A stretch of DNA of 64,000 bases, taken from positions 4,041 through 68,040 of the IMG/VR virus record IMGVR_UViG_3300034101_003860. The stretch is one strand, 5' to 3'. The notes beneath the pieces are model-generated. The model ran no database searches. It was not told where the DNA came from and saw only the letters and a program-made list of their open reading frames with translations. Below are positions 5,864 through 63,314 of this stretch, piece by piece; the stretch's first letter is position 1, and every line of letters begins with the position of its first letter. This DNA is from a virus. The position numbers and the translations under genes were made by a program.

Positions 5864-5870
5864 AAACTTT

Positions 5871-6596: not shown

Positions 6597-6603
6597 GTGA
6601 GTT

Positions 6604-32600: not shown

Positions 32601-35600
32601 AGGTCCATATAAACTAGCTAGTCCAAACTTAAGACCTTTTCCCGTAGCAGCTTGTTCATTGAGTTGTTTTTGTCCTGCTTGTTGTGCTTTCTCAGCCTCT
32701 TTTTTTTCTTCTGCTTGTTTTAATAAAGGTTCAATAATTTTTTCTAATAAGGAACCATTATCTAAAGATTTTAATGAGGGAAGTGTTAATAGTTGTTTCG
32801 CGGTGCCTACTTTTGGCATCACCGCTCTAGCTTTTGCTACGGCTTTTTGAATTTCATCATAAGAAACATTTGCAGTAATATAACCACTACCACCAACTTT
32901 TTGTATTCTATCAAGAATTTGTTGTGAAATTTTTCCAACAGGAGTTTCTACACCACCAACTGATCCGGCCATAAATTTTTGTACTAATCCGCCATTAGCA
33001 AAATTTTTAGATTCTGGAATAGCTTGTCTCATAGCCCAAGCAAAATGAGATGCTCTACCAGTAACGGTTGGAAGAATATCTTTTTGATAATCTTTAGCTT
33101 CTTGTATAGCATTGCTAGCTTTTACAATTTTATCAAGAACGCTCTTGCGAAGTTTCTCGTCTTGAGTTTCTGATAACTCTTTTTCTAAAGATTTTCTGAA
33201 AGCAATAAGTCTCTCTGGAATATCTGGAATTTCATCTAGTAATGGTTTACCAGATATAAACTCTCCACTTTTAGCAGATTGTTCAAATCGTTTTAAGAAT
33301 CCGCCTTTTGTACCTGAATCTTTTTGATATCTGGCTATGGTTGCTTCTAAAACTTCCTTCGGTGCTCGCGGAGCTTGTTCAGCATACTTTAACAAGACAT
33401 CCATAGGGACATTTTCTAAGCTAGATGAATCAACTCCGCCTGCTGTAGCAACCATTTTGCGCAAAGTTCTGGCGTCCATCTTTCTATGTACAGAGGCTTT
33501 AATTTTTTGTTCAGAGGCGAACGGAGATATTTTTTCTCTCCAAAAGCCTTTTTTGCCTAAATAAGTTGTTAATTCAGATTCTAGTTCTGGTACTATTCTT
33601 TCTTGTGGTACTTCAACAAACTCATTCCCGATAACCATACCAGCACCAGCAGTACTAAATATATCATATGCTTGATCCTTAGCGTATCGTATTAGATCTT
33701 CTGTGCTAAGTTTATAGATTTCTTCTTGTGTTAATTCTTTGAACTTGCTACGAGCGCCCCGGGCTCCAGTTTTACCTCTCCCTTTACCGCTAGGAACATT
33801 AACGCCACCGACCGATCCAGCCATAAATTTTTGTACTATCCCACCCAAACTTAATGGAACATCAAAAGATGTATCTTCTCCTTCTTCAAATACTACTGCT
33901 CCGAAATTTTTTCTATTTTTTTCTCCCCCTGTAGCGCGATCTAGATATTTCTGAATTTTAGGTTGAAATAATTCTGGAGTTGCTCGATTTTTAGATAGTC
34001 TGGCATCTGTTGGCAAACCTATCAATTTGGTATTATCAAAAGCAGGAACATTACCTGGCCAATTACTATAATCGAAAGTTCCTCCAGCGCTTTCTTTAGT
34101 ACCTCTTGGTTTAGACCTTCTAAGAGTTTGTTCTAATAAAGAACCTTTAACACTTCTATATAATCTAAAGTTTTGAATAGAGGATTTTGTTTCATCTATT
34201 CCTTTTTTACCAGGAGGTAAGAATTGTGATTTACCTTTATTTACTATGTCTGCTAATCCTTGGTCAAGATAATCTGTATTAATAAATCCTGGCTCAGCAT
34301 AATCGACAAAGACTTTTGCCTTACCTCCTTTAGCTAGTTTATTCATTTTAGCTAAATTGCCTCTTCCGTATTTTTGAGCAGCTTGGTTGTTGATCACAAC
34401 CTCTCCGGGTTCTAGCATAGCAGGAACCTTATCTCCCTTTCCACTGCCTGGAACAATACCCCCCTTATTAAATCCTAATACCTTACCCCCACCTCTCAGA
34501 GTTGATGATCCTCTAGATCTCATGGTACTATCTAAACTTTGTACTGCTGATGTTAATGTTTTTAGAGCATCTGTATTTAATCTAATAGCATCTGCTGCTT
34601 TTGCTGTTACTTCTGCTCTTTGCTTCTCTTTAGCCCCACTTAAACTTTCTCCAATATTTTGACCAGCACCACCAGCGCCACCACCCTTTTTCAGACCGCC
34701 AAAAAAACCTGTGGCAAATTGCCCGATGGCGCTTACTCCTTTAATAGCTCCAAATACAGCTAAGATTGGCAATATTGGCTTAAATGCGCTCGCAAGACTG
34801 AGCAAGCCGCTAGTTAAACCAACCACGATTTTGAAAAATCCTTGAAAAACAGTGCTTTGCCCAACCTCACGAATCAAACCTAAAAATTGTTCACGAACTT
34901 TTGCTATTTGATTAGCTAAGCTTTGTTGTGCTTTTATCTGAGCGTCTGTTAAGCTGCTTTGTCCTCTTTGAGCAACACCCAAAGCTTGTTGTGCTACTGC
35001 AAATTGTTGAATTAAAGGAATGACTTTACCGATTTGTCTAAATCCACCAAGTTCTTCTACTATTGTTGAAAATCGAATATCTCTGGGATCTAATTGATTA
35101 AGAGCATCACTAAGTCTTCTAATAGCTTCAAACGGACCAACGAACTTGCCTTCAAGATCTTGTAGTTCCACACCAAATTGTTTTAGTTGTTGGATAGTGC
35201 TACTTCTTTGAATTCTTGTAAAAATTGTTCTTAAGCCGGTAGCAATAGTCTCTGCACTTTCACGAGTAGTTTGACGAACACTAGTAAAAATAGCAATAAA
35301 CTCATTTAGAGCATCGGTACCTTCGCTAACTCCTTTACTAGCACTAGCGAACACACCACCAGTACGCTGAATAGCAGCAATAATATCTCCAGATTCAACA
35401 GCGAACGCTGCTGCAACAGCATTGATACTACCTAGTGCTGCTTCTAGCTCTCCTGCTTCTAATCCGAACTGTCTAATCGCAGCAATGGCACCTTCTGTGG
35501 TTTTAGTTAGGCTTTCGAAAGATGGAGCCAGTTCTGTCTTAGCCAAAGCTTTAAGCGCTATTCTGGTTTCTTCCACACTCAAACCCGCCTGGGCTAATGT

Positions 35601-52175: not shown

Positions 52176-52212
52176 AATTTGTCCTTGCGTTAAGTGAACA
52201 ATGTTGTACTAT

Positions 52213-52241
52213 ATAATAAGTTATTAGTACACTTTTGTCAA
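52213..52241 (-). promoter_or_regulatory. sigma70-type promoter for sigma/packaging operon
   Basis: TTGACA-17 nt-TATTAT on minus strand, spacer contains GTGTAC. Confidence 0.6.
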
Positions 52242-52256
52242 AAAGGAACAACTATT

Positions 52257-52481
52257 ATGGGTAATTATAAAAAGTGGAGTGATGCAGAGTTGGGGTTTGT
52301 TAGGGATAATATTGAAGTTTTGAGTGATAGTGAATTGGCCAATAAGCTGAAAGATATGACGGGTGAAAATATTACTACGGGAATGGTAAGACGTCAAAGA
52401 CGCAAGTTGGGTATTGCTAAAGCTCGTGGTCGTAGAAAAAAGATCAAAGATACTGCTCCACAGTTACATTCAGAAACCTGA
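52257..52481 (+). CDS. small HTH DNA-binding protein
   Basis: KWSDAELGFVRDN..SDSELANKL..VRRQRRKLG; AAGGA RBS before ATG 52257. Confidence 0.7.
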   Translation: MGNYKKWSDAELGFVRDNIEVLSDSELANKLKDMTGENITTGMVRRQRRKLGIAKARGRRKKIKDTAPQLHSET

Positions 52482-52509
52482 AACAATAATTGTATTCGGT
52501 ATTCTAAAG

Positions 52510-52539
52510 AAGCATCAGATTCGTCTGGTGCTTTTTTTT
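52510..52539 (+). terminator. intrinsic terminator
   Basis: AAGCATCAGA-TTCG-TCTGGTGCTT plus T run. Confidence 0.9.
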
Positions 52540-52686
52540 GTTTGGTTATGGGGCTAATAAGAAGGTTTAGGTAATACATTTTAGTTATGAGGGGCTTATT
52601 GAGTTTGGACCACCGCCGCGTTTTGGGGGTTATACCCCCCATTGGTGGCAAAACAGAAAAACCCCCCATAGGTGGGGAAAGGCTAT

Positions 52687-52703
52687 AGCAAATCCTGTGC
52701 CAA
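52687..52703 (-). promoter_or_regulatory. sigma54 -24/-12 consensus site
   Basis: TTGGCACAGGATTTGCT (GG-N10-GC). Confidence 0.7.
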
Positions 52704-52826
52704 AAACTCGAAAACTTACAATGTCGATAGAATATGGTTTCGACTATTTTTTTTAGTTGACAATGCCGATACTAAATGTAGGATAGTGGCATGATTACGA
52801 TGGAAACCCACAATGGAGATAGTAAG

Positions 52827-53084
52827 ATGCAAACGAATGGTGCGGTTATCACTGGACGCTACATGATCGCAAGCCGCAGGGATGGTCGCGTTTTTAGTGG
52901 CATGGTCGAGTCGGTCAAGGCTCTAGACAAGGGTACGCTTGTGGTGCTAACGTGGTTTTCCCACGACGAAGAAAACTATGGTCACAAGTATCGTTCGTTT
53001 TATCTTGACAGCCTCACCGGCTGGGAAATGTATCTTGATGGCGAAGAGTACGATTGTGCGATTGCTTGCATGGTCGAGGCATAG
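52827..53084 (+). CDS. small SH3/WYL-like beta protein, paralogue 1
   Basis: GGAG RBS; KGTLVVLTWF..YRSFYLD. Confidence 0.7.
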   Translation: MQTNGAVITGRYMIASRRDGRVFSGMVESVKALDKGTLVVLTWFSHDEENYGHKYRSFYLDSLTGWEMYLDGEEYDCAIACMVEA

Positions 53085-53147
53085 ACTGGCCGATATAGGG
53101 GTATCTTACATCCTCCCCCCTATGGGGGATAACCTAGGAAAAATAAA

Positions 53148-53336
53148 ATGAACAATCTTGATAAGATTTTCGGTGCTATGCGAACTGGCAAGTATGGTAC
53201 GATTGTTGACCCGAAGGGCAAGGTATACGTCGGGATTATTAATAGCATCATGAGGGAAGATGGTAGCGGTCGCAACTGGATTGTAACCGTCACGAATCTG
53301 ACCACGACCGACAAGATTTTCATTCACGCTAACTGA
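53148..53336 (+). CDS. hypothetical early protein
   Basis: AGGA RBS; 62 aa. Confidence 0.7.
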   Translation: MNNLDKIFGAMRTGKYGTIVDPKGKVYVGIINSIMREDGSGRNWIVTVTNLTTTDKIFIHAN

Positions 53337-53349
53337 AAAGGATAGAAAA

Positions 53350-53511
53350 ATGAGCGATTTTGAGCGGATTATCGCGGATAGCATGATCGACGAGGATGGG
53401 CAAGAGTGGACGGTTGGGTATTTTGGGGTGGATCTGGATGATGAGGAAGAATACATCGACCACGAGGAAGACGCAGACTGGGACGTTTATGGGGAAGAGG
53501 AGTTTGCATAA
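53350..53511 (+). CDS. very acidic 53-aa protein (not in ORF track)
   Basis: AAGGA RBS; MSDFERIIADSMIDEDGQEW...EEEFA*, 22 D/E versus one R. Confidence 0.7.
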   Translation: MSDFERIIADSMIDEDGQEWTVGYFGVDLDDEEEYIDHEEDADWDVYGEEEFA

Positions 53512-53584
53512 CCCCCCGATGGTAGGGATAACCACACTCTCCCCCACATGGGGGATTGTACCACCCAAACTGGGCCGTTAGAAC

Positions 53585-53653
53585 CTGCCAAAACGGCATA
53601 CAAGGCAGACTGCCAAAATGGCAGAAATCGCGCGAAATCTGCCAAAATGGCAG
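53585..53653. repeat. paired palindrome CTGCCA-N3-TGGCAG, unit 1 (plus extra degenerate copy)
   Basis: Copies at 53610 and 53639 (29-bp pitch); degenerate copy at 53585. Confidence 0.95.
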
Positions 53654-53658
53654 CCACC

Positions 53659-53701
53659 AGCAAATATCGTGCCAAACTGCCCCCAGCAAATATCATGCCA
53701 A
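53659..53701 (-). promoter_or_regulatory. two tandem sigma54 -24/-12 consensus sites
   Basis: TTGGCACGATATTTGCT (53659-53675) and TTGGCATGATATTTGCT (53685-53701). Confidence 0.7.
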
Positions 53702-53786
53702 ATGAAAATCTTTTTTTCTCTATTTCTTTTTTTTGACAATGCCGATATAGAATGTAGGATAAGTGAAAAGGAAAAGGAGATTGAAA

Positions 53787-53921
53787 ATGTTTGACGATGC
53801 CGAATATATCTCGCAGTGCTGCGGTTGCCCGGTTGACGTACCTTGCCCAAGCGATCCGGTCGATGATATCGTCGTGATTTGCCCAGATTGTCAAGAATGG
53901 ACGTCGATTGAAATCGAGTGA
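53787..53921 (+). CDS. small acidic Zn-ribbon protein (44 aa, not in ORF track)
   Basis: AAGGAG RBS; SQCCGC...ICPDC. Confidence 0.7.
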   Translation: MFDDAEYISQCCGCPVDVPCPSDPVDDIVVICPDCQEWTSIEIE

Positions 53922-53978
53922 TTTTTTTTGTTGACAATATCGATACTAAATGTAGGATAGCAGTATCACAAGGGAGAA

Positions 53979-54227
53979 ATGCAAATGGAAAGCCGTTGCG
54001 ACAAGTTTGGTACGGTTCAGGTGAACAAGGGTTTCGAGTGTGTCAAGCATAACGGCAAGGGTTATGCTGGAAATATCGTCAAGGTGTCGGCTCACCCTAG
54101 GGGTACACTTGTCACGATTGAATGGTATCTCCCGCGTGATCCTAGTCCCACCTATCGGTCGGTCTATCTCGAAGAGTGTGAAGTGTGGTGGACTCACACT
54201 TATAACCGCGAAGTTATCACCCATTGA
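53979..54227 (+). CDS. small SH3/WYL-like beta protein, paralogue 2
   Basis: KFGTVQV..FEC.K.NGK.YAG.IVKVS..GTLVTI..YRSVYLEEC. Confidence 0.75.
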   Translation: MQMESRCDKFGTVQVNKGFECVKHNGKGYAGNIVKVSAHPRGTLVTIEWYLPRDPSPTYRSVYLEECEVWWTHTYNREVITH

Positions 54228-54246
54228 ACGAAAAGGAAAGCAAACG

Positions 54247-54429
54247 ATGAATGATGAAATCCGAAATCTGGCAAACGCTCTCGGCCTTGTGGTCGCATCG
54301 GTATGGAATGGATACACTCGACGATGGATTGTGAGCGAACGTGACGCATACTACCCCCTCTATACTACTACCGATTATGCTACGCTGATCGAAGGATTGA
54401 AGAATGGAGGACGATTCCCCCCATTGTAG
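54247..54429 (+). CDS. hypothetical early protein
   Basis: AAGGA RBS before MNDEIRNLANAL. Confidence 0.65.
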   Translation: MNDEIRNLANALGLVVASVWNGYTRRWIVSERDAYYPLYTTTDYATLIEGLKNGGRFPPL

Positions 54430-54531
54430 GGAATACCCCCCTCCGAAGTAGGGTGGGCTACAATACCCCCCTTATGGGGGTTGTCTCAGCCGAGCCTCTC
54501 GGCTTACAATAATGACAGTCAGCCAGTGAGA

Positions 54532-54575
54532 CTGCCAAAATGGCAGGCGCCGCGCGCTTTCTGCCAAAATGGCAG
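54532..54575. repeat. paired palindrome unit 2
   Basis: CTGCCAAAATGGCAG at 54532 and 54561. Confidence 0.95.
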
Positions 54576-54579
54576 GCAG

Positions 54580-54622
54580 AGCAAATCTTGTGCCAAACGC
54601 CCACCAGCAAATATCATGCCAA
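54580..54622 (-). promoter_or_regulatory. two tandem sigma54 -24/-12 consensus sites
   Basis: TTGGCACAAGATTTGCT (54580-54596) and TTGGCATGATATTTGCT (54606-54622). Confidence 0.7.
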
Positions 54623-54711
54623 ACAAAAAATATTTTTCCACAATCTTTTCCTCTTTTTTTTTGTTGACAATGCCGATACCTAATGTATAATCGAGGTATA
54701 ACCAAGAGGAA

Positions 54712-54972
54712 ATGAAAATGAGTAAGTTTGGAACGGTTCAGGTTGGATACGATTTCGAGTGCCTGAAGAATAACGGTAAGCGGTATGCCGGTGAGATTGT
54801 CAAGGTTTCATCGTATGCTAAGGGTACGCTGGTCACGATTCGATATTATGAGTCAGATGCCTACAAAAACTCGTATGGGGAGTGGGTCGAGGGTTTTAGT
54901 CCAGTTCACAAGTCGATATATCTTGAAGATTGTGCCGAATGGTACACTGAGGAGCCAGCCCCCCAATACTAG
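54712..54972 (+). CDS. small SH3/WYL-like beta protein, paralogue 3
   Basis: Clear similarity to 53979-54227; HKSIYLEDC. Confidence 0.75.
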   Translation: MKMSKFGTVQVGYDFECLKNNGKRYAGEIVKVSSYAKGTLVTIRYYESDAYKNSYGEWVEGFSPVHKSIYLEDCAEWYTEEPAPQY

Positions 54973-55011
54973 GGGGTTGTGCAGTTTGGTAGGATCAAGT
55001 CAGAAAGGAAA

Positions 55012-55212
55012 ATGGTCATGTTCATCATTATGAAACGTTCGCGAGCATATGAGGGGGCCACACCCCTCGACGCCTACAGTGTTCCCGAAACGTGTGCCTG
55101 TGCTGGTGTTGAACCCGGCAAGGTATACAATAGTCGGGAGTCTGCCCAAGTTGATGCCGACAAGTTGAGCCGGTACAATCCTATCGGGTTTGTTGTGGTT
55201 TCCTGTAAATAA
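55012..55212 (+). CDS. hypothetical early protein
   Basis: AAGGA RBS before MVMFIIMK. Confidence 0.6.
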   Translation: MVMFIIMKRSRAYEGATPLDAYSVPETCACAGVEPGKVYNSRESAQVDADKLSRYNPIGFVVVSCK

Positions 55213-55240
55213 GTTTTTCTCACCACTAAGGGTATCAAAA

Positions 55241-55558
55241 ATGTTTCCGATTATTGAAAAAGCCAAGCGTCAAGCCTACCTTTGCTTCGTGGGTCTGGCT
55301 ATCCCCTGCGACAAGTCTACGGCCGATGGCGGTATGATTCGGTCTGAAAAGGTTCTGAAGTTCAATCGGTCTGCTATGCGTGATAGTGTCAACGTCAAGG
55401 CCGAAAAGGTTGACCCCCGAATGAGTGGGGGTGAGGATACGATGATTGTTAAGGTGGGCAAGCCGGGTAGTCGGGAGAGGGTAGAGGCTTTCCGGTCACA
55501 ATATGACGCTATCGCCGCTATGGGCGAGGAAGTATCCCCCTTCGCTTGGGAGGGGTGA
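55241..55558 (+). CDS. hypothetical early protein
   Basis: ATG 55241 (MFPIIEKAKRQ). Confidence 0.7.
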   Translation: MFPIIEKAKRQAYLCFVGLAIPCDKSTADGGMIRSEKVLKFNRSAMRDSVNVKAEKVDPRMSGGEDTMIVKVGKPGSRERVEAFRSQYDAIAAMGEEVSPFAWEG

Positions 55559-55577
55559 CCCACCCACGAGAGGGGTT

Positions 55578-55642
55578 CTGTCAAGTTGGCAGCCTTGACT
55601 GCCAAAATGGCAGAAATCGCGCGAAATCTGCCAAAATGGCAG
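55578..55642. repeat. paired palindrome unit 3 (plus extra degenerate copy)
   Basis: Copies at 55599 and 55628; degenerate CTGTCAAGTTGGCAG at 55578; 55597-55665 identical to 53608-53676. Confidence 0.95.
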
Positions 55643-55647
55643 CCACC

Positions 55648-55664
55648 AGCAAATATCGTGCCAA
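55648..55664 (-). promoter_or_regulatory. sigma54 -24/-12 consensus site
   Basis: TTGGCACGATATTTGCT. Confidence 0.7.
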
Positions 55665-55754
55665 AAGCCAAAATATTATTTTGCTATTTTTTTTGTTTGA
55701 CATTCAAGGTATGGCTGGTAGAATACCGATATACCTAGCAGAGAGGAAAAGAAA

Positions 55755-55970
55755 ATGATCGAAAACAAAATCAAAGATGCACTGACTCAGATTTGGGGAA
55801 GCGAGTCTCACAACGTAACTTTTCTGGCAACCCCCGATGGTCGGCTGTACGCTGAGTGTGAGTCTACTATGGATCGTCGCCGGTTGACTGATAGTAACTA
55901 TCGTGAGATTCTGAACGATATGTTTTATATTTACTGTCTGGAAAATGCCGCTTGGATGGGGGTTTCATAG
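55755..55970 (+). CDS. hypothetical early protein
   Basis: GAGGA RBS, own promoter. Confidence 0.7.
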   Translation: MIENKIKDALTQIWGSESHNVTFLATPDGRLYAECESTMDRRRLTDSNYREILNDMFYIYCLENAAWMGVS

Positions 55971-56141
55971 TCCCCCTGTTGTGGGGGTTGATTTGTCTTA
56001 TCCGATCCTATCGGATTGGCAAGGTGGGCTATAGTCAGCCAAAATGAGGGCCTAATGGAAATCGTGAGTTTGGTATTGACATTGTGGATATCGGGTGGTA
56101 TGATTCTTAGTGTGGTTTGGTTGCTCTCTTTGGAGTAAAAA

Positions 56142-56357
56142 ATGGATTACCAGAAAATCTATAAGTTTGATAATGGTTATGGGGCTAGTGTGGTTTGTAA
56201 CTTTGGAACCTATGGGGCCAAAGATGGTCTTTTCGAGGTTGCCGTTCTTGACAGTAACGGAGAGATTGCATACAATACGCCCGTTGCTAGTGACGTTATC
56301 GGCTGGCTTGACTTTGCAGACGTTGCGGATATTCTGAATAAGATTAAGGCTCTCTAA
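56142..56357 (+). CDS. hypothetical phage protein
   Basis: GGAG RBS; FDNGYGASVV..YG..GLFEVAVL motif common in small phage proteins. Confidence 0.75.
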   Translation: MDYQKIYKFDNGYGASVVCNFGTYGAKDGLFEVAVLDSNGEIAYNTPVASDVIGWLDFADVADILNKIKAL

Positions 56358-56372
56358 TCTAAGGAAAATAAA

Positions 56373-56675
56373 ATGACTTACGCCGAAGCGGTTTCTATGG
56401 TGCAAGGTAAAACCAATCGTAAGACTCGAAAGATTGGTAATAATACCTATGCGGAAATCGAGTATGATAACAGTGTTTCTATTCGGTTGCATGGTACATC
56501 GGTTGTAAGGTTTTATCCTAATGGGCTGGTGAAGTTGAATAGTGGCGGGTGGCGAACCAGCACCACAAAAGATAGAATCAACAAGTATAGCCCCGTGAGT
56601 GTTTACCAAAAAAACTTTGAGTGGTTTTTGCGTGATCATACTCCGTTTGAAGATAATATCTTGGTTCGTAACTAA
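56373..56675 (+). CDS. hypothetical phage protein
   Basis: AAGGA RBS; LHGT.V..LNSGGWRTSTTKDRIN. Confidence 0.75.
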   Translation: MTYAEAVSMVQGKTNRKTRKIGNNTYAEIEYDNSVSIRLHGTSVVRFYPNGLVKLNSGGWRTSTTKDRINKYSPVSVYQKNFEWFLRDHTPFEDNILVRN

Positions 56676-56690
56676 AGAAAGGGGCTAGGG

Positions 56691-56801
56691 ATGGCCGATT
56701 ATATTAACTGGTATGTATTCTTTGCTGGATTTACTATTGGTGGTGCTTGTGTTTATAGTATTTGTGAACTACTTTTTCCTTTGAGTAAAAAAGATGAATA
56801 A
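56691..56801 (+). CDS. small membrane peptide (36 aa)
   Basis: MADYINWYVFFAGFTIGGACVYSICELLF hydrophobic span. Confidence 0.45.
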   Translation: MADYINWYVFFAGFTIGGACVYSICELLFPLSKKDE

Positions 56802-56868
56802 GGCGGATTATATTCTGTTGAGTTTCTCTTTTGTGATGGGCTGCGTTCTTACCTATCTTCTCAACTAA
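56794..56868 (+). CDS. small membrane peptide (24 aa)
   Basis: MNKADYILLSFSFVMGCVLTYLLN*, overlaps upstream stop. Confidence 0.35.
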   Translation: MNKADYILLSFSFVMGCVLTYLLN

Positions 56869-56876
56869 AACAAGGG

Positions 56877-56920
56877 CTGCCAATATGGCAGTTTCCGCGG
56901 CCGAGCTGCCAAAATGGCAG
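56877..56920. repeat. paired palindrome unit 4
   Basis: Copies at 56877 and 56906. Confidence 0.95.
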
Positions 56921-57002
56921 AGATTATTTTTGTGGATTTTTTTAGTTGACAAACCGATATCTAATGGTAGAATCAGCGTATCACCCCAACGGAGAAACGA
57001 CG

Positions 57003-57191
57003 ATGAATCAGTTTCCTCGGATGATGGCTCTTCTGGACGATACGGACACGATCAATGCTCTTCTGGCTCAACTGGTTGATGATGGATCAGTCGAGCCGAT
57101 TGATGATCCTAATAACCTGACCGACTTTTGGGATTGGGCCGAAGTGGTCGGGATTGTGGATGAGTTTGCCCCTATTGACAGCATGGTTTGA
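57003..57191 (+). CDS. small acidic protein
   Basis: GGAG RBS before MNQFPRMMALLDD. Confidence 0.7.
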   Translation: MNQFPRMMALLDDTDTINALLAQLVDDGSVEPIDDPNNLTDFWDWAEVVGIVDEFAPIDSMV

Positions 57192-57212
57192 TTAGTGTAA
57201 AAAGGATAAGTC

Positions 57213-57479
57213 ATGAGCCACCCCGATCCCCTTTACGATAAGGAAAACACGATGAGCCAGGATTCTTTTGACCGTTTCGATGATATGGCCGAGCGTACCA
57301 TTTATCCGTGGATTGACGATGAGTCGCACGACAGCGACGATGCTAACTACGATGACCATGATGACTTTTTCGATGAGGATGATTACGACGATAGCATGGA
57401 CGGAGATCATGATTCCGCGATGGAATCGGCGGGTTGGGGAACCGACGAGGACTACGGATACTACGGAGACGATTATTGA
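57213..57479 (+). CDS. extremely acidic protein
   Basis: AAGGA RBS; Asp-dominated; DGDHDSAMESAGWGTDEDYG C-terminus. Confidence 0.75.
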   Translation: MSHPDPLYDKENTMSQDSFDRFDDMAERTIYPWIDDESHDSDDANYDDHDDFFDEDDYDDSMDGDHDSAMESAGWGTDEDYGYYGDDY

Positions 57480-57492
57480 GCAAAACCCCGAT

Positions 57493-57536
57493 CTGCCAAA
57501 ATGGCAGCGGGGCCGCGATTTCTGCCAAAATGGCAT
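57493..57536. repeat. paired palindrome unit 5
   Basis: Copies at 57493 and 57522. Confidence 0.95.
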
Positions 57537-57615
57537 ACAAAGATTTTCTTATTTTTTTTCTTGACAGTGCCGATCTATATGGTATCCTTAGAGCATCACC
57601 CCAAAGGAAACGATA

Positions 57616-57951
57616 ATGACCTACAACGGCTATTCTAACTACGAAACGTGGGCTGTTCAGTTGTGGATCGACAATAGTGAATCGTCCAGTGCGTTCTGGC
57701 ATCGGCTTGCGGAAGAGATTTATAATCACGCAGCATCCGAACAGGCTCATTTTAGCAAGGTCGAGGATGCTACTTGTATTCTGGCCGAAAAACTCCGCGA
57801 TAGTTACAACGGCGGAATGGAAGCGCTTTTGAGTGATGGTAACGCAACCGGAACAGTTTGGGCCGATTTGCTGAACGCTAGTGTTTGTGCTGTTAACTTC
57901 CATGAGATTGCCAAGAATCTGATGGAAAGTGTTGTAGCAGTTCCTGCTTGA
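57616..57951 (+). CDS. conserved phage early protein (YNGYSNYETW family)
   Basis: AAGGA RBS; YNGYSNYETWAVQLWIDN...VNFHEIA. Confidence 0.75.
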   Translation: MTYNGYSNYETWAVQLWIDNSESSSAFWHRLAEEIYNHAASEQAHFSKVEDATCILAEKLRDSYNGGMEALLSDGNATGTVWADLLNASVCAVNFHEIAKNLMESVVAVPA

Positions 57952-58015
57952 CAAACGATTTTCTTGTGGTATGCTAGTTTTATTGAGTGAAGGATTTCTA
58001 AACGAAAGGGTTTTT

Positions 58016-58423
58016 ATGAACGACACGATTCTTTTTGGTTTGATTTTTGCTGGTGTGGCCGCTGCTATTTGTGCGTTTTCGTGGTTTCATGTTTATCGTG
58101 GAGTGCATGATAGTCTTACGAATGCTAAGGTTGGTCAGGTTTATAACTTTAAGTATTTGCAGCCTGTGACTGATGTGCCTGAGCGTTTTATGGCTAGGGT
58201 GGTTGGTGTTCAAACTTTTACTGAGGATTATCTTAGTCGTTTGAATAGTAAGAGTCGTTATCGTCGGAATGATCCTGAGTTTCAGCGTAGTAAGCATCTT
58301 GTGACCGCTCAAACTTTTGATGGTAAGATTAGGAACTTTTATGCTGAGCGAACCACGGATGTTCGTCGCCCCCTGTTGGGAGGGGTACTCTTTAAGAGTG
58401 GAATGGCGAGCCTCTTCTTTTAG
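58016..58423 (+). CDS. membrane-anchored protein with WYL/SH3-like domain
   Basis: N-terminal TM helix; YNFKYLQP...HLVTAQTFDGKIRNFYAERT. Confidence 0.6.
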   Translation: MNDTILFGLIFAGVAAAICAFSWFHVYRGVHDSLTNAKVGQVYNFKYLQPVTDVPERFMARVVGVQTFTEDYLSRLNSKSRYRRNDPEFQRSKHLVTAQTFDGKIRNFYAERTTDVRRPLLGGVLFKSGMASLFF

Positions 58424-58435
58424 GAGGTTCCTCGT

Positions 58436-58479
58436 CTGCCAAAGTGGCAGGCGGGCCGCGAAAACTGCCAAAATGGCAA
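58436..58479. repeat. paired palindrome unit 6
   Basis: Copies at 58436 and 58465. Confidence 0.9.
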
Positions 58480-58526
58480 GATATTTTCTCACTTGACAAC
58501 CTTCTAACAGCCGATACAATAAGCGT

Positions 58527-58673
58527 ATGATTACATCAAACTGCTACTCTTGGAAAGTTTTTCGTTTTAGCCATACATTTGTTGGTTATGTTATGGCTAG
58601 TTCTCAATATGAAGCCAATATTCTTGCAAAAGAAAAGTATGGCGATTTCGTTTGGATTGAACGAGTTCGCTAG
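58527..58673 (+). CDS. small hypothetical protein (48 aa), probably leaderless
   Basis: ATG 7 nt after the -10 box TACAAT; no SD. Confidence 0.55.
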   Translation: MITSNCYSWKVFRFSHTFVGYVMASSQYEANILAKEKYGDFVWIERVR

Positions 58674-58676
58674 TCT

Positions 58677-58748
58677 GGCCCCGTAGTATAGTGGTTAGTA
58701 CACTGGGCTTTCATCCCAGAGACTGGAGTTCGATTCTCCACGGGGCTA
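58677..58748 (+). tRNA. tRNA-Glu (TTC)
   Basis: Cloverleaf: GGCCCCG/CGGGGCT, CTGGG-CTTTCAT-CCCAG, TGGAG-TTCGATT-CTCCA; no encoded CCA. Confidence 0.92.
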
Positions 58749-58750
58749 CT

Positions 58751-58880
58751 AGAGAGAACAGGAATCGTAAACCCGCCACTCTCAAAATCCAATGAGTCCA
58801 ACCAAAGGATTTGTGGCTATGGCTACCCTGTCTCTTCTAATCCTTCGGATTTGGTTAGCGTGGTGTAGTCAGCGAGAAGC
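58751..58880 (+). ncRNA. candidate small structured RNA after tRNA-Glu
   Basis: GAGAACAGG/CCTGTCTC, GCCAC/GTGGC, AAATCC/GGATTT nested stems; no ORF. Confidence 0.45.
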
Positions 58881-58942
58881 ACAAAAAATATTTTTTCAAG
58901 AAACCCTCTTGACAAGCCGATAATAGATAGTACAATGATTGA

Positions 58943-59383
58943 AGAACAAGTGAAAACTTGTTGGTTATGTCGGGCCGAGTAGCCGGTAAAAACGGTAGTT
59001 GATGTCCTAGGAAACGTCTTCTACAATCGGTCCTAACAATACAAACATCCGTGGGTCAAGCCAGACTAGATTGGGATAACCACTTCGATTATAGATATAC
59101 ATACCGTGTTGATCACTGGTCAAAAACTGTATATCGTTGCCTGTTGGGGTTATACAACGGGCTAGAAGTCCAATCTATGAGGGATAGCGTCCTCACCACG
59201 GCCAATACAACCAGTAACCGTTCCCAAGAGCCAGACCAGAGCGGGTCTTATGTGCTAGCAATGCCCGCTTTGCAGGGAGGATTTCCGTGGACGGTTTCCA
59301 CCAGTTTTTACCTTGCTCCAAGGGTTCATAATATCGGAGTATTGGTGGGTTATAGAATCGGGGCGTAAACGATTCGCTGGTTG
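58943..59383 (+). ncRNA. candidate large structured ncRNA (~440 nt)
   Basis: Own promoter (58909-58936), no credible ORF, more than 12 complementary segments in nested multi-branch arrangement. Confidence 0.75.
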
Positions 59384-59423
59384 ACAAAATAAAAACACAG
59401 TGTAGAATACGAGAGTAAGACAT

Positions 59424-59510
59424 GGCGGGCGTAGCGTAATGGTAGCGTGTGTAAAATCGGTGGCAGAGATCTACTGTCTACACGAAATGGTTCGATTCCA
59501 TTCCCCGTCC
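59424..59510 (+). ncRNA. tRNA-like element with enlarged anticodon arm
   Basis: D arm (GCGT-AATGGTA-GCGT), T arm AATGG-TTCGATT-CCATT, GGCGGG/CCCGTC acceptor; 25-nt insert in place of the anticodon loop. Confidence 0.65.
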
Positions 59511-59513
59511 CTA

Positions 59514-59670
59514 GTCACCAACGAAACTCCGATTCATTCGGTGTGCTACCCTCCATAATGAGATCATAGCCTATATTGGTGACACAATACAACTCTGCTG
59601 ATAGTTTCCTTAGAAATAAGGTTGAATAAATATAGTGCCGAGTGCTTATTCGTAAAACTATCAGTGTGTC
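59514..59670 (+). ncRNA. candidate structured RNA(s) after tRNA-like element
   Basis: GTCACCAA/TTGGTGAC stem; CTGATAGTTT/AAACTATCAG stem enclosing CCTTA-GAAA-TAAGG and GAATAA/TTATTC. Confidence 0.5.
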
Positions 59671-59713
59671 GGCCAAAATGACAGGCCGAGCGGCCGATCT
59701 GCCAAAATGACAG
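59670..59713. repeat. paired palindrome unit 7
   Basis: Variant copies (..AAATGACAG) at 59670 and 59699. Confidence 0.9.
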
Positions 59714-59784
59714 ATATTTTTTTGTGGACTTTGCGTATTGACAAGCCGATAATAGACTATAGAATACGAGCATAGGAGAGAAAC

Positions 59785-59958
59785 ATGAATCACGACCCAT
59801 ATTGGACATTCCCACAGTTTCCTGAGAATAATACTTGGGAGATTCGCTATTTGTGTTGGCGAGCGTGTGGCGAAACCAGAGAACACAGCACACGACTCGC
59901 TAATGAGGGACGTATGCCTGCTAACTGGTGGATGCTTTACAGAGATGATGGAAGGTAA
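59785..59958 (+). CDS. small hypothetical protein (57 aa, not in ORF track)
   Basis: AGGAG RBS; MNHDPYWTFPQFPENN... Confidence 0.65.
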   Translation: MNHDPYWTFPQFPENNTWEIRYLCWRACGETREHSTRLANEGRMPANWWMLYRDDGR

Positions 59959-59959
59959 A

Positions 59960-60160
59960 ATGAGAATAAGTAAAAAACAAATATCAGATGCTCTTAGTAT
60001 TGATAGTGACGATCTATCGTCAAAGGATATGGGTATTGCATTATTGAACATTGAGAGTATACTTGATAGCGTTGCTGAAAACCTTGATGATGATTTTGAA
60101 TCTGCGGCTTTGGGCGATGCTTCTAATCTAATACAAATGATAAGAGAGGCATTGACTTGA
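59960..60160 (+). CDS. small acidic helical protein
   Basis: ATG just after upstream stop (MRISKKQISDAL). Confidence 0.6.
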   Translation: MRISKKQISDALSIDSDDLSSKDMGIALLNIESILDSVAENLDDDFESAALGDASNLIQMIREALT

Positions 60161-60187
60161 CGATAAAGAATGGTATAATGGTGACAA

Positions 60188-60304
60188 ATGAGAATCTTCC
60201 GTAAAATAATTCTGTTCTTGCCGTCTTTGACCATGTTCTTTCTGGCATACTTTAGTTTTATTTGTGATAACGAGGCTACACACTTTAGTTTTAGGTGGAA
60301 ATAA
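60188..60304 (+). CDS. small hydrophobic peptide (38 aa)
   Basis: ATG shortly after TATAAT; TAATG coupling to next ORF. Confidence 0.4.
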   Translation: MRIFRKIILFLPSLTMFFLAYFSFICDNEATHFSFRWK

Positions 60305-60396
60305 TGACCGTTAATGAGTTTATTGACGAGTTTCTTGATCCAAAGTTTCAAGAAATATTGAAGATTGTGGAACAGGTTTTGGAGGAAAATAAATGA
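60304..60396 (+). CDS. small peptide (30 aa)
   Basis: Coupled on both sides (TAATG, ATGA). Confidence 0.45.
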   Translation: MTVNEFIDEFLDPKFQEILKIVEQVLEENK

Positions 60397-60617
60397 ACTG
60401 GCATTATGATAATCCTATTAGGGACCGTAAGTATCTTTGTTGTGTAAAGGGATACTCTGAACCTATTGATCTTCTCTGGAATAAAGAGCAGGGAGGGTGG
60501 GGTGATTGGTGGCATGGTGAATATGACGATGGTTTGGCAGAATGGGATCAGTTTGACAATGATCTAGTGGTATGCTATATTGGTTTTGATGAGATTCCTA
60601 TGCCGGAGGGTTGGTAA
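60393..60617 (+). CDS. Trp-rich small protein (DUF551-like)
   Basis: GGAGG RBS; MNW...P...YLC...W...VVCY..IPMP. Confidence 0.65.
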   Translation: MNWHYDNPIRDRKYLCCVKGYSEPIDLLWNKEQGGWGDWWHGEYDDGLAEWDQFDNDLVVCYIGFDEIPMPEGW

Positions 60618-60871
60618 TGGAATGGCTTAGTTTTTTTGGTTATCGTCGCCCTATTAATGGGCAAAAGGTTTATTACTTTGGGCCAGATATTGGGGTATGG
60701 CGGGGAAGATATGAGATTCATAGAGATGATCCTGTGAGTGAACATATTCTTATTTGTGAAGAAAGTCCCGGTCTTGTGGATCGTATGGATGCTCCGTGGT
60801 GGATGCCGTATGAGGGACAACCAAAACCAAAACGACCAACTACCGATTATCCAGAGGATTACCCGCAATGA
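60617..60871 (+). CDS. Trp-rich small protein (DUF551-like)
   Basis: MEWLSF..RRPINGQKV...WWMP..P. Confidence 0.65.
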   Translation: MEWLSFFGYRRPINGQKVYYFGPDIGVWRGRYEIHRDDPVSEHILICEESPGLVDRMDAPWWMPYEGQPKPKRPTTDYPEDYPQ

Positions 60872-61026
60872 TTACTATTTCAACCGATGAGTTTCGTCGT
60901 CTTATCGGCCATATTCAGGAGTACCTTGACAATCCTAATCTACCTAATACAATGGCGAAGATTGCTATCGACACCCTAAAGATGTACGATATTGAAGCCT
61001 ACGAGGAAAATGCAAAAAATGAATGA
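60868..61026 (+). CDS. small hypothetical protein (52 aa)
   Basis: GAGG RBS, ATGA overlap. Confidence 0.55.
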   Translation: MITISTDEFRRLIGHIQEYLDNPNLPNTMAKIAIDTLKMYDIEAYEENAKNE

Positions 61027-61192
61027 AGATCGTGAAAAGGCTATGGTTACTATCATCAACTTTTTTAACTCTCGCATGGGTGCGATGAGCAAGAATAATG
61101 TAGATAAGGCTAAAGAGTTGATCTCTACTCATGAGATTGCGGCTTCTGAACTGGTGGATAAATACGTGAGGCTTGTCTATGAAAACTCTTAG
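61019..61192 (+). CDS. small hypothetical protein
   Basis: MNEDREKAMVTIINFF; overlapping operon. Confidence 0.6.
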   Translation: MNEDREKAMVTIINFFNSRMGAMSKNNVDKAKELISTHEIAASELVDKYVRLVYENS

Positions 61193-61304
61193 TGATATTT
61201 GTCCGTGTGGGGCGTGTGATGTTCTGGTGTGGAAGTATGATGATTATGGATTAATCTGGAACTTCTGCCAGCAATGCCATTGGTGGTATATCGACAACGA
61301 TTAA
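61179..61304 (+). CDS. small Zn-ribbon protein (41 aa)
   Basis: GAGG RBS; CPCGAC...CQQC. Confidence 0.5.
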   Translation: MKTLSDICPCGACDVLVWKYDDYGLIWNFCQQCHWWYIDND

Positions 61305-61348
61305 CTGCCATAATGGCGGTGGTCGCGGCCGAACTGCCAAAATGGCAG
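61305..61348. repeat. paired palindrome unit 8
   Basis: Copies at 61305 and 61334. Confidence 0.9.
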
Positions 61349-61400
61349 AATATTTTTCTTATAGAACGGTATTGACAGTGCCGATACTAATGGTATACTT

Positions 61401-61535
61401 AGGGAAACAATGGGCGGGGACAACCACAATGATATCAAAGAAGGTTGTCTGAAATGTCCGTCGAGTATGGCCCAAGCCGACATTGTTTTTCCTAATCCTC
61501 CGGATTTGGCTGGGGTGGCTGTAGTCAGCGAAAGT
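61401..61535 (+). ncRNA. candidate small structured RNA
   Basis: Own promoter (61372-61399); AAACAATG/CATTGTTT closing stem, GACAACC/GGTTGTC inner stem; no ORF. Confidence 0.55.
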
Positions 61536-61591
61536 TTAAAGATCTTGACAAGAGTTGGTCGATAGAGTATACTCTAGTTATAGGAGAAAAA

Positions 61592-61816
61592 ATGGATATG
61601 AGCGTTATAGCAAGATTTGAGGCTCTGGACAGACTTAGTGAATCTCTTACAAAGCAACAGATTGAAGATTTACAGATAGTTATTAAAAACACCAAAGAAG
61701 AACTAGAGATTTGTGAAAACTGTGGAGATAGTTGGGTTGGAAATACAGAAAAAACTCTAGAGATGCTTGCTAACAGTTTAAACTTTCAACCAGACTATCC
61801 TGAATACGACTATTGA
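61592..61816 (+). CDS. hypothetical protein
   Basis: AGGAG RBS, own promoter. Confidence 0.7.
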   Translation: MDMSVIARFEALDRLSESLTKQQIEDLQIVIKNTKEELEICENCGDSWVGNTEKTLEMLANSLNFQPDYPEYDY

Positions 61817-61847
61817 CAACTGATAGCCGATAGAATATAGTATAAGC

Positions 61848-62273
61848 ATGAAACAGAAACCACTATACGGCGAAGTTCGTTTTCACCTTTCTAACGGTGA
61901 GCATTATATGCACTGGCAAGTTAAGGTTAAGCAGGGTGGAAAAACTGTTGATGTGTATTATTATGACCCCAAAGAATATCAGTTGGAAATGAGGGGTTGT
62001 AAGTTGTGGAACCGGCCGAATAAGGCTAAACAGGTATTTGAGGCTGGTGTGCATGATGTTAGTGGGTGGGTGCGGTGTGAAGAAGTTATGTTGAGGAAGG
62101 ATTTTCATCCCGCTCTACCTATTGACAATCTTGAGAAGTTGTTTTATAATCCACTTCGTGATCCACACTGGCGACGAGAAAGCGACAATAACGAGTTCGT
62201 TTGGGACGGTAGCGAGTATGCTACTCTTCTGACTAACGGCAAACAAGTTTACATTTTGGAAGAAAGGATTTAA
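61848..62273 (+). CDS. hypothetical phage protein, probably leaderless
   Basis: VRFHLSNGEHYMHWQVK; ATG directly after -10 box. Confidence 0.7.
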   Translation: MKQKPLYGEVRFHLSNGEHYMHWQVKVKQGGKTVDVYYYDPKEYQLEMRGCKLWNRPNKAKQVFEAGVHDVSGWVRCEEVMLRKDFHPALPIDNLEKLFYNPLRDPHWRRESDNNEFVWDGSEYATLLTNGKQVYILEERI

Positions 62274-62644
62274 TGATGATTAATCTGCAACTGAGCGTTC
62301 GTGAGGCTATGGAACTTGCTTTCTATGCTAGGGAGGACATTAGAGAGCGTATCACTCAGGCTTTTGAGGTGGCTTTGGGTGTGAACCAGCGTTGTACTGT
62401 TACGATCACTAGGGGTATGAGTTTGGATAACCGTATCCCGTGTATCAAGGCTATTCGCCAGTATACTGGTTGGGGTTTGAAGGAGAGCAAGGAGTGGACT
62501 GATGATCTGGTTGGTGGTTGGAAGGGCGATAGGTTCGTTCCTGCTACTCACCACACCAACAGCATCACTCTCAAGAATCCTGAGATGGCGGAAAATCTGC
62601 TGCGTGACCTGACCACTTTGGGTTGTGAGGGTTATCTCTCATAA
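62273..62644 (+). CDS. protein with ribosomal bL12 (L7/L12) C-terminal-like domain
   Basis: NRIPCIKAIRQYTGWGLKESKEWTD matches the bL12 K.VIK.VR..TGLGLKEAK motif. Confidence 0.75.
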   Translation: MMINLQLSVREAMELAFYAREDIRERITQAFEVALGVNQRCTVTITRGMSLDNRIPCIKAIRQYTGWGLKESKEWTDDLVGGWKGDRFVPATHHTNSITLKNPEMAENLLRDLTTLGCEGYLS

Positions 62645-62688
62645 CTGCCAAAGCGGCAGGCGCCGCGGCCGATCTGCCAAAATGACAC
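62645..62688. repeat. paired palindrome unit 9
   Basis: Copies at 62645 and 62674. Confidence 0.9.
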
Positions 62689-62872
62689 CCAAAAAATATT
62701 CACGAACGGCTGTTGACTTGCCGATACTCTATGGTAGAATGATAGCATCACACGACAAGACGCCAACCGATCACGACAACACAAAAGTTCGGATTGGCTC
62801 TTGACAAGTGATGATTGGGATGATAAGATACGTTTGTTCGGTTTGATTAACACTAACTTGGAGAGATTTACC

Positions 62873-63127
62873 ATGAAGAAGTTTTCGTTTGTTGTTGATA
62901 TTGTTGCTACTGATCTTGACCGTGAGGTTGTGGTTGATTCGATTGGTGATTGTCTGCGTGATGCTCTGCCGTCCGATGTTCATGCTAACGTCAAGGCCGG
63001 TGAGGTCAAGGCTTTTAGCGAGCAGGGTTATAAGGTTTGGCGGGCTAGGGTTACTGGCGTGACTGCCAAGGCTGCTGGCGATGCTCACAATAGCAAGGTC
63101 GAGCAGGAAGTCGAGGCTGTTGCCTGA
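62873..63127 (+). CDS. hypothetical protein
   Basis: GGAG RBS before MKKFSFVVDIV. Confidence 0.7.
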   Translation: MKKFSFVVDIVATDLDREVVVDSIGDCLRDALPSDVHANVKAGEVKAFSEQGYKVWRARVTGVTAKAAGDAHNSKVEQEVEAVA

Positions 63128-63150
63128 GCCTAGCATATCTACTATAATAT

Positions 63151-63191
63151 CCGATAGACCGCTAGTGGCGAACTGGCGGCTATCGGTTTTT
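63151..63191 (+). terminator. intrinsic terminator-like hairpin
   Basis: CCGATAG-A-CCGCTAGT-loop-ACTGGCGG-CTATCGG-TTTTT. Confidence 0.7.
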
Positions 63192-63193
63192 AT

Positions 63194-63265
63194 GGCCCCA
63201 TAGTTAAATGGATATAACAACTGCCTTCTAAGCAGTTATTGGAGGTTCGATTCCTCCTGGGGCTA
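63194..63265 (+). tRNA. tRNA-Arg (TCT)
   Basis: Cloverleaf: GGCCCCA/TGGGGCT, ACTGC-CTTCTAA-GCAGT, GGAGG-TTCGATT-CCTCC; no encoded CCA. Confidence 0.93.
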
Positions 63266-63270
63266 TTATC

Positions 63271-63314
63271 CTGCCAAAACGGCAGGCTCCGCGGCCGATC
63301 TGCCAAAATGGCAG
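63271..63314. repeat. paired palindrome unit 10
   Basis: Copies at 63271 and 63300. Confidence 0.95.

Follow-up and report, generated by a model that had tools for sequence, protein, structure and literature searches.

What reads six copies of a bacterial promoter sequence that lie antisense to the early genes of a phage and lead into no gene of their own? The question is raised by a 64-kb stretch of viral DNA (hereafter the window), which forms part of the 68-kb IMG/VR virus record IMGVR_UViG_3300034101_003860, and by a bipartite 16-bp element in its early region that has the appearance of a sigma-54 (RpoN) promoter. The record is about 49% complete according to CheckV, and its complete relatives measure 158-230 kb. 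It originates from lake-water metagenomes, and 24 of the 24 sequencing runs found were lake-water DNA. Minus-strand genes between 12 and 52 kb, including those for terminase, portal, capsid, and a sigma-like protein, have a guanine-cytosine (GC) content of about 33%; from 52.2 kb to the window end, consecutive short early genes follow on the plus strand at 40-48% GC.

Exactly six matches to TGGCAYNNNNNTTGCT (TGGCAY-N5-TTGCT) were found in the window, all on the minus strand. In 100 dinucleotide-preserving shuffles the mean was 0.08 matches and the maximum was 2, so that none reached six. When one mismatch was allowed, only two further sites appeared, both elsewhere in the window, versus 4.0 expected; since this wider search adds nothing nearby, the site cluster is limited to 52.7-55.7 kb. 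A chance origin of the motif was rejected on the basis of the shuffles and of a reversed control pattern. An earlier inspection of the bare letters (the sequence-only reading) had placed six minus-strand sites at 52687, 53659, 53685, 54580, 54606, and 55648, with two tandem pairs 26 bp apart from start to start, and all of them were recovered with exact spacing, as listed below.

52687-52702, minus strand: sigma-54-like site 1, TGGCACAGGATTTGCT; solitary, the first rightward early promoter having its -35 at a distance of 54 nt.
53659-53674, minus strand: sigma-54-like site 2, TGGCACGATATTTGCT; 5 nt from the palindrome at 53639-53653.
53685-53700, minus strand: sigma-54-like site 3, TGGCATGATATTTGCT; forms a tandem with site 2 (period 26 bp); the -35 at 53733 is 32 nt away.
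54580-54595, minus strand: sigma-54-like site 4, TGGCACAAGATTTGCT; 4 nt from the palindrome at 54561-54575.
54606-54621, minus strand: sigma-54-like site 5, TGGCATGATATTTGCT; forms a tandem with site 4; the -35 at 54664 is 42 nt away.
55648-55663, minus strand: sigma-54-like site 6, TGGCACGATATTTGCT; the palindrome at 55628-55642 is 5 nt away, and the -35 at 55697 is 33 nt away.

The RpoN consensus is quoted as YTGGCACG-N4-TTGCWNN in PMC3352281, and the six sites of this phage match the -24/-12 consensus quoted there in full, as the sequence-only reading had proposed. Judged by sequence, the sites are indistinguishable from a sigma-54 (RpoN) -24/-12 promoter. It had also been claimed that they lead to no credible open reading frame (ORF), and the window ORF list agrees, as no credible minus-strand ORF lies downstream of any of the six. 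Minus-strand ORFs near the sites are only antisense to plus-strand genes, or start within a site or a hairpin (the calls were made by script and are crude longest-ORF calls). An Rfam scan found no family in the site region and only two tRNAs.

To follow the element through its clade, 80 related viral loci with 78-100% protein identity were collected from a terminase search. The full bipartite site is present in 40 of the 80 loci, versus only 10 of the 80 for the TGCCA-N3-TGGCA palindrome that accompanies it in the window. Relatives conserve both halves and the exact GG-N10-GC spacing, not the TGGCA half only, and the view that the sites are mere half-sites of a palindrome binder is therefore discarded on these counts. 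Among loci that have the first rightward gene (orf74, described below) and at least 1.5 kb of the early side, 32 of 35 carry an exact site. Five complete relatives have 4, 1, 7, 6, and 1 sites, with none for the reversed control, and the sites lie almost exclusively in the first few kb of the early region; all 7 sites of G003 fall within 3.4 kb and all 6 of G004 within 2.4 kb, at the start of the early region and beside the packaging genes.

The clade consensus from 107 unique sites is TT-TGGCAY-R-NN-AT-TTGCT, and its spacer is strictly N5, with 121 matches, compared with 14 for N4, 32 for N7, and 1-3 for each other length; nearly all of the N4 and N7 matches fall within the coding sequence of terminase and capsid genes, at homologous positions. 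Among 35 unique near-matches, no mismatch falls at G-24, A-22, or C-12, one falls at G-25, and two at G-13, versus seven to ten each at -26, -23, and -11, and some at -21, -15, and -14. Since the mismatches avoid them, GG and GC are the most constrained positions, as in sigma-54 promoters. The gaps between sites are also regular: direct repeats are 10-11 bp apart in 8 of 14 pairs, head-to-head sites are 8 bp apart in 5 of 6 pairs, and the gap is only 2-3 bp in all 10 of the 10 tail-to-tail pairs. In 104 unique clade contexts, a divergent sigma-70-like promoter lies within 100 nt in 42, as in the window; 11 have a same-direction sigma-70-like promoter downstream, and in 6 a TATATA follows 1-2 nt after the site and is followed by a gene. 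We take the six sites to be copies of one bipartite element kept in place by selection, in the control regions of the first four rightward early units.

The sites are placed 32-54 nt upstream of the -35 in four sigma-70-like early promoters, and the placement is alike in relatives. On the plus strand, the order within a unit is C-run/G-run hairpins, palindrome pair, a gap of 4-5 nt, one or two sites, T-rich tract, sigma-70-like promoter, ribosome-binding site, and gene. The elements concerned are the following.

52241-52213, minus strand: sigma-70-like promoter of the leftward sigma-like/packaging operon.
52257-52481, plus strand: orf74, first rightward gene, coding for a helix-turn-helix (HTH) protein of 74 amino acids; about 200 nt from site 1, with its own promoter and a terminator at 52506-52537.
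52662-52679, minus strand: terminator-like hairpin and T-run, starting 8 nt downstream of site 1 on the same strand.
52757-52784, plus strand: sigma-70-like early promoter, TTGACA-16-TAGGAT.
53610-53653, plus strand: CTGCCA-AAA-TGGCAG palindrome pair with 29-bp spacing; a third, degenerate copy at 53585-53599.
53733-53760, plus strand: sigma-70-like early promoter after a T-rich tract.
54532-54575, plus strand: palindrome pair.
54664-54691, plus strand: sigma-70-like early promoter, TTGACA-16-TATAAT, 12 of 12 positions.
55599-55642, plus strand: palindrome pair.
55697-55724, plus strand: sigma-70-like early promoter, TTGACA-16-TAGAAT.

The right half and spacer of the palindromes at 53610-53653 read TTTTGGCA on the minus strand, which is identical to the -24 half of the site. 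Ten palindrome pairs and one extra degenerate copy (21 positions) are spread across the whole early region from 53.6 to 63.3 kb, and a sigma-54-like site adjoins only three of the ten pairs, the first three, while site 1 has no palindromes. The pairs (53610-63314) stand upstream of early promoters with the AAA centre always on the plus strand; other relatives have unrelated inverted repeats in the same place (CGTAAGT...ACTTACG, CCTTAC-N6-GTAAGG, and TGTCAA-N6-TTGACA).

The sequence-only reading had noted that the start site predicted for the palindrome-adjacent copies falls within the palindrome, and this is the case: for the copy at 53659, taking the C of GC as -12, the start would be at about 53648, inside 53639-53653, and the copies at 54580 and 55648 behave likewise. 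Two of its suggestions are disfavoured. The palindromes were suggested as enhancers, but the pairs begin 5 nt downstream of the sites on the transcribed side, whereas a canonical enhancer would lie farther away and on the other side. Leftward transcription to the late sigma gene was suggested as well, but the hairpin and T-run (52679-52662) come right after site 1, and the leftward operon has its own promoter. A terminator-like element after the terminase-proximal site is also present in L001, L002, L004, L005, L007, L013, L030, L031, and L052.

The motif is found far outside the clade. A tail-to-tail doublet with a gap of 2-3 bp is present in at least 120 IMG/VR stretches, versus none for the reversed pattern; gaps of 6-20 taken together gave 102 stretches. 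Eighty of the doublet loci were examined. They range from 30 to 66% GC, and their contigs measure between 4 kb and 481 kb; judged by orf74, the clade accounts for just 7 of the 80. Most of the doublet-bearing loci have no gene in common with the clade. Doublets are seen in very large phage contigs (L096, 353,765 bp; L135, 480,838 bp; L128, 223,402 bp), and a contig of 59% GC has four consecutive doublets about 50 bp apart (L143:418-596). From 107 other loci, 429 unique sites give T-TGGCA-Y-R-N4-TTGC-W, in which R-20 is kept in 95% (G in 62%) and positions -17/-16 are not conserved. The degenerate positions of the consensus in PMC3352281, namely Y-21, R-20, and W-11, are thus also matched in the 107 clade and 429 other unique sites. 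At many loci the sites form alternating arrays of 4-8 in intergenic regions of 200-500 bp, with 19-25 bp between starts.

The N5 spacers of the doublets are not complementary, and therefore the doublet is a protein site rather than a hairpin; a hairpin or RNA element was ruled out on this ground and because Rfam gave only the two tRNAs. No gene family is a universal neighbour, the best being the terminase large subunit at 28 of 80 loci and a 135-aa protein at 49 of 221 loci; a small-terminase family (phrog_2538) and an endolysin family are among the array neighbours. Because the doublet is so widely spread, covers such a range of GC content, and has few orf74 relatives and no universal neighbour, whatever reads the site must be conserved across very different phages. 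In cultured phages with the nearest terminase or polymerase genes (Pam5, VpV262, StenR_269, DES1, B1VFA, and vB_KpnS_p4727) no arrays were found, VpV262 having one lone site, and DNA searches using two array-bearing loci found no cultured phage.

The explanation that we tentatively prefer, with somewhat less than even confidence, is that the sites are closed docking or occupancy sites of sigma-54-type specificity, which would modulate the first early sigma-70 promoters or titrate sigma-54. The sites would be read by host sigma-54, with or without core polymerase, and would act as closed, non-productive docking points instead of promoters. Their occupancy beside the T-rich tract of the sigma-70 early promoters could gate or insulate those promoters, and occupied sites could additionally soak up sigma-54. 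We infer the binder, the closed state of binding, and the effect on neighbouring promoters alike. Sigma-54-type recognition is suggested because the consensus match is full, the spacing is rigid, GG and GC are constrained, and the motif is constant across unrelated phages that have no common candidate protein; among DNA readers, only sigma-54 is known to keep its specificity so constant across bacteria. A closed state is consistent with the antisense orientation of all six sites, with the lack of an ORF after them in the window, with the terminator after site 1, and with the finding of no activator gene in the phages.

There is a precedent on bacterial chromosomes. Chromatin immunoprecipitation (ChIP) studies in E. 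coli and Salmonella have reportedly found non-productive and intragenic sigma-54 sites, as well as sigma-54 in the role of a repressor or roadblock. The principle is shared, a closed complex without gene output that affects neighbouring sigma-70 transcription; unlike those sites, the present ones are on a phage, clustered at early promoters, conserved in a clade, and present in other phages as dense arrays. With regard to such arrays, which occur in unrelated phages from genomes of about 40 kb to contigs above 350 kb, it is possible, although less likely than not, that they act on the host sigma-54 system, either as sponges or landing pads for sigma-54 or as home sites of phage proteins that silence the sigma-54 regulon. 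If so, the six window sites would be a sparse, promoter-linked form of the same device.

Several observations weigh against the docking of host sigma-54. The site packing is too tight for a holoenzyme on every site, and the tight packing, the dyad symmetry of the doublets, and the reuse of half-sites point to a small, possibly dimeric protein. The half-sites recur as palindromes centred on 3 bp of A/T, as TGCCA-AAA-TGGCA upstream of 10 window early promoters and as TTGCA-AAA-TGCAA-like copies in L054 and L036, and a phage-specific binder of the pentamer would explain such half-site palindromes more simply. A conserved HTH/AT-hook protein, that of orf74, adjoins the first site, with a recognition helix that varies no more than the motif does. 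In 401 sampled Pseudomonadota genomes the doublet was not found, and rpoN is present in 55 of 61 sampled genomes of this phylum. Since the doublet is absent from 401 genomes of an rpoN-rich phylum, bacteria themselves appear to be without this arrangement; the tail-to-tail doublets are in this respect unlike bacterial sigma-54 promoters.

The machinery and the host count on the same side. The Sigma54_DBD domain was not found in the phage record or in five complete relatives, nor was the Sigma54_activat domain in the latter; among 19,289 ORFs of 310 site-bearing phage loci, there was neither an activator ATPase nor a sigma-54 DNA-binding domain, and no HTH_8 (Fis-type HTH) domain was found in the phages. 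As no phage activator gene was found, firing of the sites would require a host activator. Metagenome-assembled genome bins that contain relatives are taxonomically inconsistent, with rpoN in 3 of 5, and eight genome bins holding relatives have discordant labels. No DNA-level match to cultured phages was found. The terminase is 22-25% identical to Bacillus and Microcystis phage terminases, and the capsid protein is 22% identical to that of Bacillus phage G; the HIP1 octamer is absent from the window, and weak Pfam links to cyanophage small-protein families, like an ESM atlas match to GcrA, are leads only. Any host call was therefore rejected, given the distant protein matches, the discordant bins, and the lack of a cultured DNA match.

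The next explanation, which is possible but less probable than docking, is that the sites are operators for a small DNA-binding protein encoded by the phage, for which orf74 is the candidate in this clade: a GcrA/Myb-like HTH protein, many members of which end in an AT-hook. Each A/T triplet with its TGGCA or TTGC(T/A) would accommodate one HTH, the AT-hook would occupy the A/T minor groove next to it, and the arrays would repress or activate the first early promoters as the orf74 product accumulates; the sigma-54 look would then be coincidence or mimicry. The position of orf74 as the first rightward gene, with its own promoter and terminator about 200 nt from site 1, suits this explanation, as does the finding of the gene at 55 of 88 loci. 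Across 37 aligned members, M43 and R45-K50 (the RRQRRK helix) are invariant, as the motif equally is, while overall identity falls as low as 41%, and 13 of the 37 have an AT-hook Pfam match. The tight, fixed spacing of the sites and the reuse of half-sites in N3 palindromes would fit a small protein, and repeated sites sit at promoters, 32-54 nt upstream of four -35 elements. A conserved TATATA 1-2 nt after sense-oriented sites in relatives could also be a -10 for a site-bound activator.

There are parallels among known phage systems. Operators of phage early regulators can be asymmetric sites scattered over the genome, and in T4 middle promoters an activator box replaces the -35. The sites resemble such operator arrays in being repeated 16-18-bp sequences by early promoters at fixed spacing, with a small DNA-binding protein encoded alongside, and they resemble T4 middle promoters in that the box of some relatives is directly upstream of a -10-like TATATA. 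They differ in that the site is common to unrelated phages without a candidate protein, which is not normal for operators and regulators that co-evolve. Identical in its spacing and degenerate positions, the motif stands in arrays of at least 120 other viral stretches, whereas a hidden Markov model (HMM) of the orf74 superfamily finds a member in only 7 of 80 array loci, all within the clade, and no other neighbour is common to them. The co-occurrence of orf74 and site in 32 of 35 loci has no discriminating power, because both are near-universal in the clade. Overall, orf74 is a candidate reader of the sites in this clade.

It was also considered whether orf74 might itself be an RpoN-box (sigma-54 DNA-binding) domain. 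Its family is a large one of small phage proteins, with 1031 matches at E <=1e-3 among 1.84 billion representatives, and ESM atlas leads, which are leads only, are GcrA/Myb-like proteins. Pfam Sigma54_DBD matched 1 of 37 members with E 0.073, below the cut-off. When orf74 was compared with the DNA-binding end of sigma-54 by hhalign, P was 8.9e-4 with a probability of 23%, and an HMM of 33 sigma-54 C-terminal ends ranked orf74 members first of 13,005 ORFs (E 0.015-0.8). A PDB profile search with orf74 gave seven weak matches and no sigma-54 chain, and the top 150 of the matches among the 1.84 billion representatives are small or multi-repeat proteins, none with a sigma-54-like layout. The assignment was rejected as unproven, since no significant similarity was obtained by Pfam, PDB profiles, or hhalign.

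The nearest published case concerns a protein. Gp2 of Pectobacterium phage Q19 is an early protein reported to be sigma-54-like (HHpred 94%, E 0.67 to PDB 5ui5; PMC7693777). The sigma-54 signal of orf74 is comparably faint and is not significant, and the part of the Q19 report that was available mentions no DNA sites (PMC7693777). The sequence-only reading was not aware of such a cluster in phages, and in our literature searches as well only this protein of Q19 came up; no report was found of a phage that uses or targets sigma-54 promoters in cis.

Much less probable is that the sites are productive sigma-54 promoters, fired leftward with a host enhancer-binding activator. Short or antisense RNAs would then cross the palindromes and the 3' ends of the upstream early genes, so as to shut off or insulate the units, or they would feed the leftward late operon. 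The complete consensus and spacing are as expected of such promoters, and of the solo sites in the diverse set, 33 are directed at a gene start versus 18 at a gene end, by crude gene calls. In the window, however, no ORF follows any of the six sites, a terminator-like hairpin and T-run lies about 10-35 nt after site 1, and the palindrome pairs are at about +1 to +45 and not upstream. Tandem or overlapping copies would interfere with each other, the search of the phages for an activator ATPase was negative, and the leftward operon is served by a sigma-70-like promoter of its own. Productive sigma-54 transcription from the six window copies thus seems unlikely.

Some relatives have a different layout, which speaks for sigma-54-type reading of the sites, as in the preferred explanation, and for productive promoters as well. 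In L054 (two copies), L071, L084, L035, and L036, a sense-oriented site precedes the start region of an early gene by 11-12 nt, where a promoter would be expected; these genes have no sigma-70-like -35/-10, and a TATATA follows 1-2 nt after the site. In L054 (minus strand, regions 5560-5760 and 2490-2690), a conserved start sequence, ATATAAG, begins 11 nt past the GC of the site, and upstream come a palindrome and an A-tract as well as three repeats resembling TTGCAAAATGCTAC, near -105, -125, and -170. For LuxO, the consensus is given as TTGCA-N3-TGCAA, and ChIP sites in Vibrio cholerae include ttgcaaaatgcaa and ttgcattttgcaa (PMC3352281, PMC10328515). The three palindromes upstream of the sense sites (about -105 to -170) resemble this consensus as quoted, so that such sense copies have both LuxO-type palindromes upstream and a gene behind, and the L054-type layout looks like a sigma-54 promoter with an NtrC-family enhancer. 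The TATATA could equally be a -10 element served by a site-bound activator. A single site in the unrelated contig L143 is located 77 nt before a gene with a strong ribosome-binding site.

The closest bacterial parallel is found in the sigma-54 promoters of the Vibrio qrr genes with their LuxO sites, whose -24/-12 consensus and GG-N10-GC spacing, as given in PMC3352281, are identical to those of the sites. In some relatives the likeness extends to the three TTGCA-N3-TGCAA-like palindromes about 100-170 bp upstream of the sense site (PMC3352281, PMC10328515). Unlike the qrr promoters, the window sites are antisense and without a gene, are in tandem or have palindromes on the downstream side, and in the case of site 1 are followed by a terminator.

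Least probable of the four explanations, which together leave a small share for others, is a role in DNA handling, with the arrays bound by a packaging (small terminase), injection-stop, replication-origin, or partition protein near the packaging-module boundary: diverse arrays are often near packaging and lysis genes (terminase large subunit at 28 of 80 loci, phrog_2538, endolysin), the clade sites begin 0.6 kb from the sigma-like, small-terminase-like, and terminase genes, and dense alternating arrays resemble centromere or iteron arrays, but the clade sites lie in 3-4 intergenic regions about 1 kb apart, each with an early promoter, unlike a pac site, origin, or centromere, terminase and partition proteins are far too diverse for one 16-bp specificity over contigs of 30-66% GC, and a relative with terminal repeats has its sites at 58.9-62.3 kb and not at the end.

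Some further features of the region may be described. The composition changes sharply near 52000, with about 30-40% GC on the late/structural side and 40-48% GC with positive GC skew on the rightward early side. At 52180-52256, two divergent promoters stand back to back, one of the leftward operon and one of the rightward orf74, and the TATAAT of the orf74 promoter is set within the inverted repeat TGTACTA...TAGTACA. The early promoters between 52757 and 63366 have a conserved GCCGATA in the spacer between -35 and -10, which hints at an extra promoter-specific contact. Hairpins of a C-run, 4-6 nt, and a G-run lie behind most early genes (52632-52654, 52659-52681, 53105-53125, 53512-53550, 54414-54480, and 55968-55990) and also occur in relatives; they have no T-run except at 52662-52679 (minus strand) and 55968-55990, and may serve in processing, pausing, or protein binding. 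A short element, GTTTGGACCACC, is present at 52603-52614, between the terminator of the orf74 operon and the first early control region, and distant relatives have it in the corresponding position on the minus strand, at about 5845-5830 in L063 and, with a one-base variant, at about 5950-5935 in L054.

Of the early genes themselves, those at 52791-53084, 53979-54227, and 54712-54972 encode paralogous small proteins with a common C-terminal Y-[RK]-S-x-Y-L-x-x-[CL]; the second and third have a 126-nt repeat in common at 73% identity, and further copies are present in relatives. The early region also contains tRNA genes for Glu-TTC and Arg-TCT, at 58677-58749 and 63193-63266. At the left end of the window (2-1216 and 1718-10381) are genes for several glycosyltransferases and for the C-terminal portion of a polymerase III alpha subunit of the DnaE type, and within the structural module a single ORF of 4189 codons extends over 23643-36212 on the minus strand, with an N-terminus that looks tape-measure-like by eye.

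In many bacteria, programmes of nitrogen use, motility, envelope stress, and RNA repair are under the control of sigma-54, and no other sigma factor is known to remain in a closed complex until triggered by an ATPase. If the sites do bind sigma-54, phages could read or blunt the physiological state of the host at the first step of infection, and the arrays would be a natural sigma-54 decoy that could find further use as a tool. Should the binder be a phage protein, there would be a protein family whose sigma-54-promoter specificity is constant across very different phages, which would be equally unexpected. Under either reading, the motif is sharply defined, short, and easily tested in vitro. 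The spread of the sites suggests an undescribed way for phages to engage or imitate the sigma-54 of their hosts.

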